NCBI GenBank assembly: GCA_016839765.1
Contig: JAEOTP010000029.1
Coordinates: 1-44,232, forward strand
Reading direction: 5' to 3'
DNA: 44,232 bases
DNA from: Promethearchaeota archaeon
GTDB lineage: Archaea > Asgardarchaeota > Lokiarchaeia > Sigyniarchaeales > SOKP01
The notes beneath the pieces are model-generated. The model made no database searches and was not told where the DNA came from. It worked only from the letters and a program-made list of their open reading frames with translations. Position 1 is the first letter of the stretch, and each line of letters begins with the position of its first letter. Position numbers and translations under genes: made by a program. Positions 5,833-18,484 of this stretch are shown here, piece by piece.

Positions 5833-8800
5833 TCATCTGAGAATTGACATTTTTTTAATAATGATATTATGAAGCTCTACGATATTTTTTTCCATATCCA
5901 TCAAATCGAATTCAAGTCCTAATCGTGATTTAAGAAGCGGAGGAATATATTCTGGTTTTAAAAACACAGGAATGATAGGTTTGTCAATCATATCAGCTGC
6001 AGTCCATTCTTTTTTGACAGGTATAGAATTTAGAGCATTTTCAGAACAAAATATTATTAGTACATGGCTCTTACCAAGATATTCATCCATATACTCCATA
6101 ATATTATCTGTTATGTGTTTTTCACAATAATAAACTTCTTTTATTTCGTCATATTCAGTTAATCTTTTCGCAATCTCTTCTATTTTAAATAGTTCTGCAT
6201 CTTTTATAGCATAACTCACAAACACTAAAAGATCTGTTAATTTTTCACTTGGCTTAAATTTTTCTTCTAGGAGAGGATAATTTCTGAATTTCTGAATAAA
6301 ACCCCCATCCTTTAAAAATTTACCAATTTTTTTTGCTGTTTTATAATCATATTCCAGCTTGACTACTAAATCATAAAGGGTGGGTTTAATGAATTCTCTT
6401 AAGATTTTTGTACTAAACGATTGTAATTCTTCAATTTCAGAAGTATTGTAAGTTATAGGATTTAATAAGATATTTTGATAATAATCAGTATCTGAAATTT
6501 CAATATTTAAATAAGAAACCATTTCTCCTTTTGTTATATCTCTCTGTTTCTCATACTCAAATTCTATAATCTTTTTAACAGCATTGTTGGTTTCTGTAGG
6601 ATCTCTCAGATTTTTTAACTTTTCAAAAGCAATAGATTGAATTTCCTCAAAATTAAATAAATCAGCGCTTTCTAAAATGTAGTTCAATTGTTCGATTGCT
6701 ACTGAATAATTATTTTCTGCAATTAACTCCTCCACATCGGATAATTTGCCTCGTAACTCTTTAACGAGTTGTTCTTTTTCTTCCATTAATAAATCCCATA
6801 TCAAGACATCGCCTGAACTATAACCTGCCATTATTTGCTTTTTATTTGGAATAAACCTTAACGAATTGACTTTTGATAAATAATAATAGGTTGTTTGATA
6901 TTTTTCAATAAAATCCCATATTCTAACAAAATTATCTTCTGTTCCACATGCTACAAATAATCCATCAGATGAGAACGCTACTGATGTTACTGGACTGTTT
7001 ATTTTTTCAAATGTATAATCAAGTTCACCTGTATTAAATTTCCATATTCTTACAGTTTGGTCTTTAGAACCACTAGCAATATATTCTCCATCAGGTGAAA
7101 TTGCAACTGCTGTTACTGGTTCAGTATGTCCTTGAAGTGTTCGAATTGGTTTCCCTCCTTTTAGTTCCCATATATTTATAGAATTATCTTCTGAACCAGT
7201 AATAATATAATCTCCATCAGGAGAAACATCAATACTAGTGATAGCTTTAGAATGCCCTTTTAATTTTTTTTTTAATTTACCCGTAGAATATTCCCAAATT
7301 ATTGCAGTTTTATCTTTAGAACCACTAACAATATATTTTTTATCCTTTGCTACTGCAACAGAAGTTATAGCATCTTCATGACTACTAAAGGTCCAAATAT
7401 CCTCCCCACTATCTACTTCCCATACTTTTAAAGTGTTATCATTGGAAGTACTAAACACAAAATTTCCATCAGGAGAGAAAGCTACAGAATTGATAATATC
7501 TGTATGACCTTCGAGGGTTTTAATTAATTCTCCGTTAGAAAGATCCCATATAATTAAAGATTTATTTGATAAACCACTTACTGCATATTTTCCATCAGAA
7601 GAAACTGCTACTGAATTTACATTATCAGAATGACCCTTTATGATTTTAAAAATACCACCGAAACTTAGAGACCAGGTTCTTACAGTTCCATCTAGGGAAC
7701 CACTAACCGCTAATTTACCATCTGGACTAATAGCTACGGTTGAGACTTCTTTTAAGTGGTCATCAAATGTTTGAATTAGTTGGTGTTTAGTCGTATCCCA
7801 TATTTTGACTGTAGTATCACTAGAACCGCTAATTAAATGTGGTCCTATAGGAGAACATGAAACACTCAATACCTCATCTGTATGGTCTTCAAGAGATTTA
7901 ATTAAATTAAATTCTGAATAGAAATCCCACATCTTTATTGAGTTATCATCTGAACCACTAAAAATGATTCCACCTTTAGGAGAAATTGAAATGGATAAAA
8001 CTTTACCTTTATGTTCACTAATGGTTTTAATTGCTTGTTTTGAAGAAAAATCCCATATTTTTATATTTTTATCTTCTGACCCAGTAACAAAATATTTCTC
8101 ATTAGGGGTAAAAGCTATAGATGTTATTGGTCCTTTATGTTCTTTTGTTTCCCATATGAAATCTTTTACGTCATAATCCCATATTTTTAAATAATTATTG
8201 TTTAAGCCCAACATTATTTGGTTACTTTTCGGGATAAAAATTGCTGAAAGCGCAACATTTGGCAATTTTTGAGATGTTAAGTTATTTTGTGTTTTAACAT
8301 CCCATAAAATTACACTTTTATCCCAAGATGCACTAATAAGATAATCTCCATCAGAAGAAAATGCAACTGAAGAAATCGGTTTTTTATGTCCTTTAAAAGT
8401 TCCTAGGAGTCTTTGTGTATTGATATCCCATATTTTTATTAAATTATCGTTTCCTCCTGTCGCTAAATAGACTCCATTTGGAGAAATTGTTATTACAATT
8501 ACACCATCAGAATGAGCTGCTATAGGACTAAAAAGTTTATCTTCTGCCAACTCCCATACCATTATATTATTATCAGAAGAACCTGCTATTAAGTATCTCC
8601 CATTAGGAGAAAAAGTTAAAGATCGTATTGAATCAGTATCTCCCTTCAATGTCCTAATAAGCTTACCTGTAGATAATTCCCAAAATTTAATAGTTTTGTC
8701 ATCAGATCCACTTATAAATAAATCTTCCTTGGGGGAAATTGCAATAGATTGCACACTCCCTTCATGATCTTTAAGTAAGTAAATAGGTCTTCCTTTAGAG

Positions 8801-14335: not shown

Positions 14336-15337
14336 ATGTTAACTGCTGAACAATTAAAAGAAGTTTTAAAAGAGAATGTTATAAATCTGCGATTTCATGC
14401 GAGAGGCGGACAAGGTGGAGTAACAGCTTCAAACTTATGTGTAGAAGCCTTTTATGGTTATGGTGTTTGTCAACCTATGTTTGGAGCTGAGCGTATGGGT
14501 TCACCTACGGAAAGTTATGTAAGACTGAGTGCTAATGACGATTTAGTTAGAACAAATGAACAAGTATATGCTCCTCATGTTGTAGCGGTATTAGATCCTT
14601 CTCTTTTAGGAGAAATCGATGTAACTGCCGGATTAGCCAAGGGAGGTTGGTTGATTGTTAATACCGTTTTAAATCAAGAAGAAATTCAAGGTGTTGTTGG
14701 CAGAAAAGATATTAATGTTGGTACAATTGATGCGACTAGAATAGCTTTAGATGTATTGGGTAGAAATATAACCAATACCATTATTTTAGGTGGCATTATC
14801 CGTGTTATGCCAATATTTTCGACAGACGCTTTAGCAGATGCTATAATGAGGCGTTTTAAAGGAGAAGTGGCTGCTAAAAATATTGCTGCAATAAAACAAG
14901 CGATTGAAGAAACATGTGTTTACGATATTGGTTTGGATCCCGATTTTACCATTGATACAAAAGTACCTTGGCAACAAGTATTTCTTGGATTACCGGGATA
15001 TAAAGAAGTTGATAAAGCGGGAGTTTGGTACTGTGATGAAGATGTTATTGAAATTGGTAGTGGACAAGTAAATACAGGTTCTTGGGGAGAATATGATATG
15101 ATCTGGGACGAAGAAAAATGTACAGATTGTGCTCAATGTTGGTTTATATGCCCTGATTTTGCGATTATTAGGGAAAAAGGAGAGGATGGACTATGGCACA
15201 TGAAAGGAATTGATCAATTCCATTGTAAGTCTTGCCAGAATTGTCTTGAGGTTTGTCCCGTTGATGCAATAAGTAAAAAATTAAAACAAGGTCCGGCATC
15301 TTGTGCTGTTCCAGAAGATCAAGAAGGAGGTAGTTAA
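14336..15337 (+). CDS. 2-oxoacid:ferredoxin oxidoreductase gamma-delta fusion (PorC-PorD-like)
   Basis: RFHARGGQG, FGAERMGSP and NTIILG (gamma), then NTGSW plus CTDCAQCWFICP and CKSCQNCLEVCP (delta, 2x[4Fe-4S]). ATG 14336 preferred over GTG 14279. Confidence 0.92.
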   Translation: MLTAEQLKEVLKENVINLRFHARGGQGGVTASNLCVEAFYGYGVCQPMFGAERMGSPTESYVRLSANDDLVRTNEQVYAPHVVAVLDPSLLGEIDVTAGLAKGGWLIVNTVLNQEEIQGVVGRKDINVGTIDATRIALDVLGRNITNTIILGGIIRVMPIFSTDALADAIMRRFKGEVAAKNIAAIKQAIEETCVYDIGLDPDFTIDTKVPWQQVFLGLPGYKEVDKAGVWYCDEDVIEIGSGQVNTGSWGEYDMIWDEEKCTDCAQCWFICPDFAIIREKGEDGLWHMKGIDQFHCKSCQNCLEVCPVDAISKKLKQGPASCAVPEDQEGGS

Positions 15338-15339
15338 AA

Positions 15340-16569
15340 ATGTCAATAGAACCAATGAGAATATTTTTTAAAGAGATAAAAGAACCGATAACAACTACGA
15401 TGATTGGAAATTATGCTGTTGCAGGGGGAGTAACCCAGACAGATCCTGATGTAATTTGTGCATTTCCTATAACACCACAAACTCAATCTGTTGAGGGATT
15501 ATCTGATGTTGTCCATCAAGGAAGATTAAAAGCTGCCTTTGTCAATGTAGAATCTGAATTAGCTGCTATCAGTTTTTCAACGGCTGCTTGTGCAGCAGGT
15601 GCAAGATCATTTACTGCAACAGCGAGTCAAGGATATTTACTAATGACTGAAGCATTACCCATGGCAGTAGGATGGCGTCTACCATTAACTATGATGATTA
15701 GCGCAAGAGCCTTTAACAGTCCTAATTTAAGTATTTGGAATTCATGGGAGTTTACTGAAACAAATTCAGAAATGGGGTGGAATTGTATCGTATCTGAAAA
15801 TGTTCAAGAGACTTATGATGCTGCAATCCTCTCAGTAATGATTTCTGAAGACTCCTTATTCCCAACTATGTTTGTTCATGATGGTTTTATTATTTCACAT
15901 TCAGTTCAAAAATTAACTCTTATTCCAGATGAAGCTGTTAGACAAATGACTCCGAAGAAACCACGACATACAATTGACCCTTCAAAACCAGGGACTTGGG
16001 GAGGAATTGTAACCCCCTCTTATTTTATGGAAGGAAGAAAGAATCTAGATGAGGCTAAAAAACCTGTTTTGAATCAGATGAGAGAGGTTTTTTCAAGATT
16101 TAAAAAGTTTACTGGGAGAGAATACGATTTAATTGAAACCTATAATCTAGATAATTCTTCAAAAACAGCCTTTTGCACGATGGGATCAATGTGTGGAAAT
16201 ATTATCAGTTGGATGCTCAAAAATAAGGATATTGGGCTTATCAAAATACGTGCTTTTCGACCATTTCCTCATGAAGAATTACGAAAAATAATTGAAGAGC
16301 ATAATATTGAGAAATTAATAATTCTAGAGAAGTCTGATTCGCTTAATGGTATGCTACCACCATTTTCAATGTCTATTGCAACAGCATTATATCCTCTTGG
16401 AACATTATTTAGAAGTTTTATAGTAGGTTTAGGTGGTAGAGATGTAACTAGAGATGAATTCGATGTAGCTAAAAAGAAAATGGCATTAGTTTCAGATATG
16501 AATGGACGGCTTTATCAATATCTCGGTGTGAGAGAAACTAAAGGAAATATTTATGAGGTGGATTATTAA
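15340..16569 (+). CDS. porA: Pyruvate/2-ketoisovalerate:ferredoxin oxidoreductase alpha subunit
   Basis: GNYAVA, FPITPQT, VESE, TATASQG, DGFIISH, RAFRPFP, GLGGRD; SD GGAGGT. The substrate cannot be determined from sequence. Confidence 0.92.
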   Translation: MSIEPMRIFFKEIKEPITTTMIGNYAVAGGVTQTDPDVICAFPITPQTQSVEGLSDVVHQGRLKAAFVNVESELAAISFSTAACAAGARSFTATASQGYLLMTEALPMAVGWRLPLTMMISARAFNSPNLSIWNSWEFTETNSEMGWNCIVSENVQETYDAAILSVMISEDSLFPTMFVHDGFIISHSVQKLTLIPDEAVRQMTPKKPRHTIDPSKPGTWGGIVTPSYFMEGRKNLDEAKKPVLNQMREVFSRFKKFTGREYDLIETYNLDNSSKTAFCTMGSMCGNIISWMLKNKDIGLIKIRAFRPFPHEELRKIIEEHNIEKLIILEKSDSLNGMLPPFSMSIATALYPLGTLFRSFIVGLGGRDVTRDEFDVAKKKMALVSDMNGRLYQYLGVRETKGNIYEVDY

Positions 16570-17658
16570 ATGTCAAAACCAGAGAGAAACGTAATTAATT
16601 TCGAAGATATATTAGCGAGAGATGGCAAATGTAATGTTTTATTCTTCAATTATGATAATGAAGCTTTTATGAATACTGGAATTCAAGAAAGTGGAGGAAC
16701 GCCCCCATATGCTTCTACCACCACGGGACCTGCAGGAGAAAAAATTCCTGGTAAAATTGGAGTTAAACAAGACTTGGTTACTCCCTTTGCTTTTTATGGA
16801 ACAAAAAAGCTGTTCTTAGCAACGGTTAATCCCGCTTATCCAGCAGATTTCATGGGAAAAGTAGCGGATGCTCTTAAATCAAATGGTTCTGCATTTATTC
16901 AAGCATATTCAGATTGTATGAGAGGTTGGAGACATGGAGCTTCTGCAGCTCTGGAAATATCAAAATTAGCTACAGATTGTGGTTATTGGCCTTTATACAC
17001 CATAAGAGTAGAGGATGGTATTCCTATATTTACCTATTATCGGGGATTGGATATTGATAAAGAGAAGTTTGTCGAATATTTAAAATCTATGGGAAGGTTT
17101 AGACATTTATTTAAACCTAAGTTTATGGAAAAAGAAATTGATGAAATTATCTATTTAACGGAACAACGAAATAAGAAACTTAAAGGACTTATTGAACAAT
17201 TTGGAGCAGAAAAACCAATAGATTTCTATCGAGTGAATCGTAAAAAACTAGAACCTCAAAAGCATCTTCAACCAGGCCATGGACTTTGCCCCGGTTGTGG
17301 TGCTGGTATGGTCCTTAATCAACTCGCCACTGCAGCTCAAGCTGTTTCGGGAAAGAATATTATATATATCAATAATACGAGTTGTTCTGAAGTCTCCACT
17401 TCAAAAGATAACGTAACATCTTGGAACGTGCCTTGGGTTCACCACTTATTCGAATCAGGAGCTACCGTTGCTGATGGGATCATAACAGCTAAAAAAATTA
17501 TGAAAGCAAAGGGTCTATATGATAAAGAAATACCCTGGGTTATCCATATTGGTGGTGATGGGTCAACATACGATATAGGATTCCAATTTCTAAAAGCTGC
17601 CCTTATTAGGACAAGTAGTTTCGTAGAAATGAATGAATACTTAGCAAATCAAAAATAA
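16570..17658 (+). CDS. porB: Pyruvate/2-ketoisovalerate:ferredoxin oxidoreductase beta subunit, circularly permuted
   Basis: All PorB motifs are present, but in the order YDNEAFMNTGIQ (aa 28), DCMRGW (C116), GYWPLY, PGHGLCPGCG (C240/C243), NTSC (C272), GGDGSTYDIGFQ (aa 328). Confidence 0.9.
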   Translation: MSKPERNVINFEDILARDGKCNVLFFNYDNEAFMNTGIQESGGTPPYASTTTGPAGEKIPGKIGVKQDLVTPFAFYGTKKLFLATVNPAYPADFMGKVADALKSNGSAFIQAYSDCMRGWRHGASAALEISKLATDCGYWPLYTIRVEDGIPIFTYYRGLDIDKEKFVEYLKSMGRFRHLFKPKFMEKEIDEIIYLTEQRNKKLKGLIEQFGAEKPIDFYRVNRKKLEPQKHLQPGHGLCPGCGAGMVLNQLATAAQAVSGKNIIYINNTSCSEVSTSKDNVTSWNVPWVHHLFESGATVADGIITAKKIMKAKGLYDKEIPWVIHIGGDGSTYDIGFQFLKAALIRTSSFVEMNEYLANQK

Positions 17659-17662
17659 AATA

Positions 17663-17683
17663 TTTTTTAGTCTTTTTTTTTTT
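17663..17683 (+). terminator. Oligo-T archaeal terminator candidate after the por operon
   Basis: TTTTTTAGTCTTTTTTTTTTT directly after the stop codon. Confidence 0.55.
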
Positions 17684-17722: not shown

Positions 17723-18484
17723 ATGACAATTTTAATTGAAAAGAAATATCCAGTTTATACAGTAATTATTGATAATCCTGAAGTGAAAAATGCTGTGGAT
17801 GGTCCGACAGCATTAGAGCTTACTAATGCATTCAGAGAATTTGAACAAGATAATAATGCACTTGTTGCTGTTTTATGGGGTGCGAATGGTGTGTTTTGTT
17901 CAGGCGCAAATCTTAAAGCTATTGCTGAAGAGCGGGGAAATAAAGTAGAAAGAGAGGGAGATGGTCCAATGGGCCCTACTAGAATGATGCTTTCTAAACC
18001 TATTATTGCTGCTGTAGCAGGTTATGCGGTTGCTGGCGGTCTAGAACTTGCATTATGGTGTGATTTACGAGTGGTTGAAGAGAGTGCTATTTTTGGAGTA
18101 TTTTGTCGCAGGTTTGGTGTACCGTTAATAGATGGAGGTACTATAAGGCTACCTAGATTAATAGGATTAAGTCGTGCTTTAGATATGATCCTTACTGGAC
18201 GACCAGTGTCCGCTCAAGAAGCTTTTGTATGGGGTTTAGCAAATAAAATTGTAAACGATGGAACATCACGAGAAGAAGCTGAAAAATTAGCTAGCAAGAT
18301 TGCTAAATTTCCCCAAATTTGTATGCAAAATGATAGGTTATCGACTTATGAACAATTTGGTATGAATTTAAAAGAAGGAATGAAAAATGAATTTGAATAT
18401 GGCTTAAAAACGTTAGAAAGTGGAGAATATCTTAAAGGCAGCGAGGAATTTACTTTTGGAAAGGGAAAACATGGAAAATTCTAA
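17723..18484 (+). CDS. Enoyl-CoA hydratase/crotonase family protein
   Basis: FCSGANL, KPIIAAVAGYAVAGGLE, GVPLIDGG, LTGRPV. Confidence 0.93.
   Translation: MTILIEKKYPVYTVIIDNPEVKNAVDGPTALELTNAFREFEQDNNALVAVLWGANGVFCSGANLKAIAEERGNKVEREGDGPMGPTRMMLSKPIIAAVAGYAVAGGLELALWCDLRVVEESAIFGVFCRRFGVPLIDGGTIRLPRLIGLSRALDMILTGRPVSAQEAFVWGLANKIVNDGTSREEAEKLASKIAKFPQICMQNDRLSTYEQFGMNLKEGMKNEFEYGLKTLESGEYLKGSEEFTFGKGKHGKF

Follow-up and report, generated by a model that had tools for sequence, protein, structure and literature searches.

2-Oxoacid:ferredoxin oxidoreductases (OFORs) rank with the most ancient enzymes at the core of anaerobic carbon and energy metabolism. In PorB, their canonical beta subunit, the conserved elements follow one another along the chain in the order CxxC, C, GDG, DNE..N, C, WPLY and GRF, and the GDG..N motif for thiamine diphosphate (ThDP) is a textbook contiguous signature. 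The ThDP superfamily tolerates the rearrangement of whole domains, with its PYR and PP domains occurring in different orders or in different chains. Here we describe a PorB in which the cut falls instead inside the PP domain, through GDG..N. The gene occupies positions 16570–17658 on the forward strand of a 44,232-nucleotide (nt) contig of the Loki-type Asgard archaeon Promethearchaeota archaeon (JAEOTP010000029.1, assembly GCA_016839765.1), the whole of which is referred to hereafter as the window. We conclude, with a probability of roughly 0.85, that this open reading frame (ORF) encodes a working ThDP/[4Fe-4S] beta subunit of a pyruvate:ferredoxin oxidoreductase (PFOR)/VOR-type 2-oxoacid:ferredoxin oxidoreductase, the chain of which is circularly permuted.

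The best-matching described protein is PorB of the four-subunit archaeal PFOR of Methanosarcina acetivorans (PDB 9bt4 chain C), to which both halves of the permuted protein are homologous (overall E 3.2e-48). The two proteins have in common the CxxC..C..C ligands of the proximal [4Fe-4S] cluster, the GDG, DNE..NTG, WPLY and GRFxHL motifs, an adjacent alpha gene and, as modelled here, an alpha–beta interface. They differ in that the halves of the permuted protein are swapped and accompanied by a 19-residue linker, a 19-residue N-terminal extension and a 10-residue tail, and in that the gamma and delta subunits of the permuted system are fused in one gene. The second-best match, again as two swapped blocks (E 6.2e-45), is the beta subunit of Moorella thermoacetica oxalate oxidoreductase (PDB 5c4i chain C; NCBIfam NF045792). 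This enzyme also has a fused gamma/delta-type subunit, and its delta model matches the gamma-delta protein of the window; however, its beta subunit has the canonical order, and the permuted PorB falls far under the cut-off of the corresponding model (185.1 against 590). The best structural matches are to domain VI of single-chain PFORs (1b0p, 6cin and 7plm; Z 10.5–11.4 over 159–174 residues), to which block A of the permuted protein (defined below) also has a detectable sequence match. Unlike the permuted PorB, domain VI keeps the canonical order, and it forms the C-terminal part of a chain of 1,200 residues.

Full-text searches of the literature returned no description of a permuted OFOR or of a permuted PP domain, and a review of PFOR diversity from November 2026 mentions neither permutation nor Asgard archaea (PMC13768988).

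Order of the two halves and position of the cut

The ORF has an uninterrupted translation of 362 residues, followed by a stop codon. With the NCBIfam PorB model NF008819, two separate matching stretches were obtained, and a search of the genomic DNA with a PorB profile placed nt 16630–17151 on profile positions 119–286 and nt 17236–17625 on positions 4–122. In a phmmer comparison with 9bt4 chain C, query residues 226–347 aligned with PorB residues 3–115 and query residues 24–194 with PorB residues 120–283; an equivalent pair of swapped blocks was obtained with 5c4i chain C. We also built a hidden Markov model (HMM) from 58 canonical PorB sequences, comprising 56 canonical-order homologues and the two canonical PorB proteins of the genome itself. 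Residues 22–204 matched positions 172–342 of this canonical HMM and residues 224–352 matched positions 50–174, with scores of 152 and 117 bits. Both blocks are thus significant against NF008819, 9bt4 chain C, 5c4i chain C and the canonical HMM. The first-pass annotation, which was made from the letters of the window alone, had predicted two profile hits in swapped order, and NF008819, 9bt4 chain C and the canonical HMM all gave them. Neither the permuted ORF nor any of 113 collinear relatives follows the canonical chain order.

From the N terminus, the ORF begins with a new extension that has no counterpart in canonical PorB (residues 1–19; 16570–16626, +). Block A (residues 20–204; 16627–17181, +) is the canonical C-terminal half (9bt4 chain C 120–283; canonical HMM 171–343) and contains the DNE..NTG strand, C116, WPLY, GRFxHL and the canonical C-terminal helix. 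A new linker (residues 205–223; 17182–17238, +) lies between the HMM blocks and joins the old C terminus to the old N terminus. Block B (residues 224–352; 17239–17625, +) is the canonical N-terminal half (9bt4 chain C 3–115; canonical HMM 50–174), with the CxxC motif (C240 and C243), C272, a VPW motif, and GDG (residues 329–331) together with the helix that follows it. A new tail (residues 353–362) and the TAA stop codon (17656–17658) complete the gene (17626–17658, +). The first-pass annotation had noted terminal extensions, and residues 1–19 and 353–362 indeed lie outside both HMM blocks.

The YDNE..NTG motif starts at residue 28 (nt 16651) and GGDG at residue 328 (nt 17551), and the four cysteines are C116, C240/C243 (nt 17287) and C272; every motif listed by the first-pass annotation was found where it had been placed. 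Both the HMM and the phmmer alignments locate the cut in the loop between the helix following GDG and the beta strand that ends in DNE..N, which bears out the earlier proposal of a break within the ThDP motif. In sequence, therefore, one part of the Mg/diphosphate motif lies near each end of the chain. The gene reads through the old C/N junction with neither a stop codon nor a duplicated block, as had been claimed.

Conservation of the permuted order in one Asgard class

A word-indexed homologue search returned 248 hits. Of the best 120, which come from JGI, ENA, NCBI and Logan assemblies and reach down to 53% identity, nearly all have about 360 residues and align over 97–100% of the query. 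When 271 stored proteins were re-scored against the query, 113 proved collinear over their full length and 122 had the canonical block order, with no other block order among them. Across 1.84 billion cluster representatives, searched exhaustively, the sole collinear full-length hit was a 54%-identical Hel-type protein, and every other strong hit had the canonical order.

The first-pass annotation had suggested a search of Asgard genomes for the permuted order. A survey of 400 genomes of the phylum gave full-length hits, with E below 1e-100 and 52–100% identity, in every one of the seven families sampled from the window's class. The other 26 families gave only half-matches to canonical PorB, one contig-end fragment aside. 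About 130 species genomes carry the full-length permuted order, several of them closed in a single contig.

The permuted order is a genuine feature of one Asgard class, and misassembly is excluded. An assembly or binning artefact, in which pieces of a normal porB or tandem copies of it had been joined in the wrong order, would be a natural concern for a window taken from a 96-contig draft genome, but its probability is close to nil: the same full-length order recurs in more than 100 clusters (JGI, ENA, NCBI and Logan) and in the roughly 130 genomes of the class, closed ones included, the sequences around the junctions are conserved and show purifying selection, and there is no duplication at the junction. 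The first-pass annotation had taken the gene for a genuine natural permutation and had allowed that close relatives might all prove canonical; they share the permuted order.

Two observations touch on this distribution. The contig-end fragment mentioned above (G075:C23:2002-2799), which encodes 266 residues of a permuted gene with 97% identity, comes from a genome of a different family; here, bin contamination is probably a simpler explanation than transfer. In addition, a few NCBI names on near-identical proteins (Thor and Hermod) conflict with the restriction to one class, and we took these as unverified submitter labels.

Purifying selection on the permuted gene

In an alignment of 30 diverse members of the permuted family (53–87% identity), C116, C240, C243 and C272 are invariant; they align with the cysteines of 9bt4 chain C, so that all four cluster ligands are kept, as the first-pass annotation had proposed. 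GDG (329–331) and D29-N30-E31..N35-T36-G37 are likewise invariant in this alignment. The ThDP/Mg residues are thus present although not contiguous, and their meeting in space is seen in a model only. The new N-terminal extension, linker and tail are also kept in sequence within the family, and linker residues L207 and Y220 are invariant. The ratio of nonsynonymous to synonymous substitutions (dN/dS; Nei–Gojobori, against 11 orthologues) is 0.02–0.04 for the gene as a whole; in these three new segments, wherever it could be measured, it does not exceed 0.18.

These values bear on the idea of a relic, either decaying or non-catalytic, with canonical PorB paralogues doing the work and the permuted copy serving a non-enzymatic purpose, if any. 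The genome does encode two canonical porB genes beside alpha genes, along with one KorB-like gene; the permuted gene is absent from some complete relatives, and short stop-bearing inserts interrupt it in some others. However, a dN/dS of 0.02–0.04, the invariance of all cofactor and cluster residues, and a conserved operon with its own alpha and gamma-delta genes make a relic very improbable, and the interrupting inserts are shaped like spliceable tRNA-type introns in host genes otherwise without defect. The low dN/dS, the invariant residues, the conserved operon and the alpha–beta model described below all agree with the view, already held in the first-pass annotation, that the permutant is probably functional.

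The gamma-delta, alpha and beta operon

The permuted beta gene lies in a gamma-delta/alpha/beta operon. The first gene (14337–15337, +) encodes a fused gamma-delta subunit, with a POR gamma part followed by a 2x[4Fe-4S] ferredoxin-like delta part (Pfam POR 8.8e-26 and Fer4 families; NCBIfam PorC_KorC and PorD_KorD). Its ORF opens at GTG 14279, but similarity to the family sets in only at residue 35, and translation more probably begins at ATG 14337. The second gene, porA (15340–16569, +), encodes the 409-residue alpha subunit (Pfam POR_N 7.5e-54 and PFOR_II). Its TAA stop codon (16567–16569) abuts the ATG (16570) of the permuted porB, and a Shine–Dalgarno-like GAGGTGG (16555–16561, +) lies 8 nt 5′ of this ATG. 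Downstream of the stop codon of porB, two T-runs of 6 T (17663–17668) and 11 T (17673–17683) form a likely archaeal oligo-T terminator (17663–17683, +). The first-pass annotation had likewise given the gene its own Shine–Dalgarno sequence, a start directly after the porA stop codon and an oligo-T end, and each of these can be read from the sequence. The next gene (17723–18484, +) encodes an enoyl-CoA hydratase of the crotonase family (NCBIfam NF006108, 397 bits against a cut-off of 273).

Among 11 related loci examined, porA is adjacent to the permuted beta gene in eight, and the fused gamma-delta gene lies upstream of porA in seven related loci, distant members included. A crotonase homologue is found within a few kilobases of the permuted porB in two relatives (L027 and L006), and in a closed relative (L023) the neighbours are an M32 carboxypeptidase and a pyridoxal phosphate (PLP) enzyme. 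Such neighbours hint at acyl-CoA and amino-acid catabolism.

The gamma-delta protein of the window is only 44–46% identical to those of three related loci (L026–L028), at which the alpha and beta proteins are 82–86% and 76–87% identical to those of the window. The window's gamma-delta gene would thus either have evolved much faster or have been replaced.

Predicted structure and subunit assembly

AlphaFold modelled the permuted beta subunit with a predicted template modelling (TM) score of 0.83 and a mean predicted local distance difference test (pLDDT) value of 76.5. In the model, the linker is formed by the end of a helix and a strand, and the block of residues 181–230, which encloses it, has pLDDT values of 90–93. 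The best structural matches, and the only strong ones, are PFOR domain VI, oxalate oxidoreductase beta and PorB (Z 9.4–11.4, with 159–174 residues aligned). Foldseek and VIA-align gave TM scores of 0.39–0.48 with about half of the chain aligned, because both programs respect chain order.

The first-pass annotation had suggested predicting the structure of the complex. A model of porA with the permuted beta subunit reached an ipSAE interface score of 0.81, compared with 0.00 for the best control; the mark used is reached by 58 of 80 solved complexes and by 2 of 110 mismatched pairs. The contacts agree to at least 96% among three runs, the partner pLDDT is 85–86, and the modelled interface with alpha is formed by block B. 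The model supports the binding of the permuted beta subunit to the adjacent alpha subunit, although this pass may partly reflect likeness to a known structure, because a solved PorAB complex exists.

In alpha/beta folds of the usual kind, ligands bind at one end of the strands and the helix-to-strand loops are found at the other. By this analogy, the cut would lie far from the cofactor, on the opposite face of the ThDP PP domain, and the folded site could therefore stay unchanged.

Phylogeny and origin of the permutation

We re-permuted 36 family members in silico and placed them with the 58 canonical sequences in an unrooted tree, computed with a quick method. The first-pass annotation had proposed such a re-permutation. 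In the tree, the permuted proteins form one clade (SH-aLRT 100) with a stem of 1.4 changes per site and short internal branches. The nearest canonical cluster is from Bathyarchaeia (44% identity), and the genome's own canonical PorB paralogues lie in the other half of the tree. This topology fits a single, old permutation event followed by strong conservation.

Two routes to the permuted gene can be considered. An in-frame tandem porB–porB fusion, in which copy 1 later lost its first half and copy 2 its second half, has a little less than an even chance in our estimation. Such a history is consistent with the three or four profile positions at the cut that are matched by both ends of the protein (canonical HMM 171–174; PRK11865 119–122), and with the extra residues at both termini. 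However, the extension and tail are not significantly like the canonical segments from which they would derive: in anchored profile alignments, 100 of 300 column shuffles scored as well as the C-terminal tail against the canonical segment after the cut, and 148 of 300 did so for the N-terminal extension against the segment before the cut. By eye, the tail resembles the strand with DNE and the extension resembles the helix after GDG, and we had considered a decayed duplicate copy at the termini; we dropped this idea because the shuffles scored as well. Moreover, neither a tandem or double-length intermediate nor any otherwise permuted form was present among the 271 stored homologues.

The second route, a split of porB into half-genes at the cut loop that were then reordered and re-fused, is in our view doubtful. 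Proteins of about 190 residues that consist of the C-terminal half only and start near the cut (P0215, P0224, P0236 and P0262) could represent such half-genes, but P0215 starts at a contig end, P0262 lies in an unrelated gene context, and no clear case of a porB divided over two genes was found. A clean split would also not be expected to give the small profile overlap at the cut.

Function and substrate

The best-scoring models of the beta and alpha subunits are PorB and PorA, but both scores are far below the cut-offs, so that the assignment is limited to a PFOR/VOR-type 2-oxoacid:ferredoxin oxidoreductase. The permuted beta subunit scores 210.7 against a curated cut-off of 405 with NF008819 and 171.7 against 405 with NF008818, in addition to its shortfall with NF045792, and these low values arise in part because the permutation splits the alignment. 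The porA product scores 302 bits with NCBIfam PorA_Arch, which has a cut-off of 550. Pfam TPP_enzyme_C passes its threshold (25.6 bits against 21.9) over residues 20–111 only, in line with the earlier prediction that standard profiles would yield partial hits.

We propose that the permuted beta subunit joins the adjacent alpha and fused gamma-delta subunits in one complex. This complex would oxidize a 2-oxoacid with CoA to yield acyl-CoA, CO2 and reduced ferredoxin, or would run in reverse, and its setting is likely to be amino-acid or pyruvate catabolism.

Several observations weigh against this reading. Some same-genus genomes that are estimated to be 100% complete have no permuted gene, which is therefore dispensable, and in one closed genome (L024) the permuted gene has no adjacent porA. 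The model of the isolated beta subunit has low confidence at residues 31–74, where the cofactor-wrapping loop at the subunit interface is expected. Scores below every named OFOR equivalog cut-off point to a diverged paralogue, the substrate of which cannot be read from the models, and the long stem leaves room for a changed specificity or role.

The last two points could also indicate a functional ThDP/Fe–S subunit with a chemistry or substrate beyond those of PFOR, VOR and OOR, the stem of 1.4 changes per site recording a neofunctionalization that accompanied the permutation. The alpha and beta scores far under all equivalog cut-offs, the presence of the gene as a third paralogue beside two canonical sets, and the variation of its neighbours by lineage, from the enoyl-CoA hydratase of the window to the M32 carboxypeptidase and PLP enzyme of L023, would agree with such a change. 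Nevertheless, PorB and PorA remain the best-scoring models and all of the OFOR-specific residues checked are kept, and we consider a new chemistry unlikely.

More speculatively, and in our judgement rather improbably, the permutation itself may have been adaptive and may define a separate, new class of OFOR, restricted to Loki-type Asgard archaea, with a new contact surface and substrate specificity. With both termini relocated to the far side of the PP domain, the new and conserved N-terminal extension, linker strand and C-terminal helix would have arisen, and this surface might contact the fused gamma-delta subunit or a specific electron partner. The long stem and the status as a third paralogue would then be traces of this change.

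Implications for annotation and enzyme design

A natural cut within the GDG..N motif that is kept across an archaeal class indicates that the PP domain tolerates a permuted topology. The permuted PorB thus offers enzyme engineers a natural template, and is a clean case for studying the origin of permutations.

The homologues of the permuted protein are named 'oxidoreductase beta subunit' at JGI and 'hypothetical protein' at NCBI, the latter because the order swap halves the profile scores. Loki-type Asgard archaea are the closest known relatives of eukaryotes, and their metabolic reconstructions lean heavily on ferredoxin-dependent 2-oxoacid oxidation; in such reconstructions, the OFOR operon would seem to lack its beta subunit. 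The permuted family would likewise be truncated or misplaced in any alignment or tree built on the assumption of collinearity.

Inserts and other interruptions in relatives

The permuted porB orthologues of four other genomes of the same family carry a 30–31-nt insert at one shared site (L026:5353-5382, L027:3032-3061, L030:4282-4311 and L028:4970-5000), within intact operons. The site is inside the I38 codon of the NTGIQ ThDP motif and corresponds to nt 16681/16682 of the window, the gene of which has no insert. The four inserts introduce an in-frame TGA or a frameshift, and their precise removal restores the reading frame. They contain hairpins of 7–9 base pairs, the pairing of which is kept through compensatory changes.

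A fifth orthologue, at L006, has two inserts, one of 31 nt after residue 39 (L006:5710-5740) and one of 30 nt after residue 113 (L006:5962-5991), and this two-insert form is identical in three independent assemblies. Its protein was called from Met117 (P0115) because the two inserts interrupt the gene. We had considered relatives with a Met117 start as pseudogenes or as carriers of selenocysteine sites, and dropped both ideas when L006, the one locus examined, showed two stop or frameshift inserts. There is no adjacent porA at L006; the final 33 codons recur as a stray copy at 7523–7621, and upstream of the interrupted orthologue is an 842-residue ORF with a LAGLIDADG_3 domain (L006:2887-5415) that has no porA match.

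With the boundaries fixed by protein alignment, all six inserts fit the bulge–helix–bulge geometry of archaeal tRNA introns, with three or four of four central pairs, 3-nt bulges cut at the inferred junctions and an inner helix. Three central plus six inner pairs are reached by just 0.06% of windows of the same length at these loci. Judged by sequence, the inserts are probably tRNA-type mini-introns in mRNA.

Four long canonical PorB proteins from metagenomes (P0149, P0150, P0205 and P0257; 607–756 residues) contain inteins between GDG and DNE..NTG, with Intein_splicing and LAGLIDADG_3 domains, at points a few residues from the permutation cut and the mini-intron site. Long proteins with a gap between the halves had been candidates for permutation intermediates, and were rejected as the gap consists of inteins. 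The conserved GDG..DNE motif region seems to attract several kinds of insertion. Finally, the new tail of a distant, 53%-identical orthologue in genome G123 (L029:1690-2790, −) contains an in-frame TAG about 13 codons ahead of the point at which the gene normally stops; this could represent a shortened tail, a read-through codon or an error.

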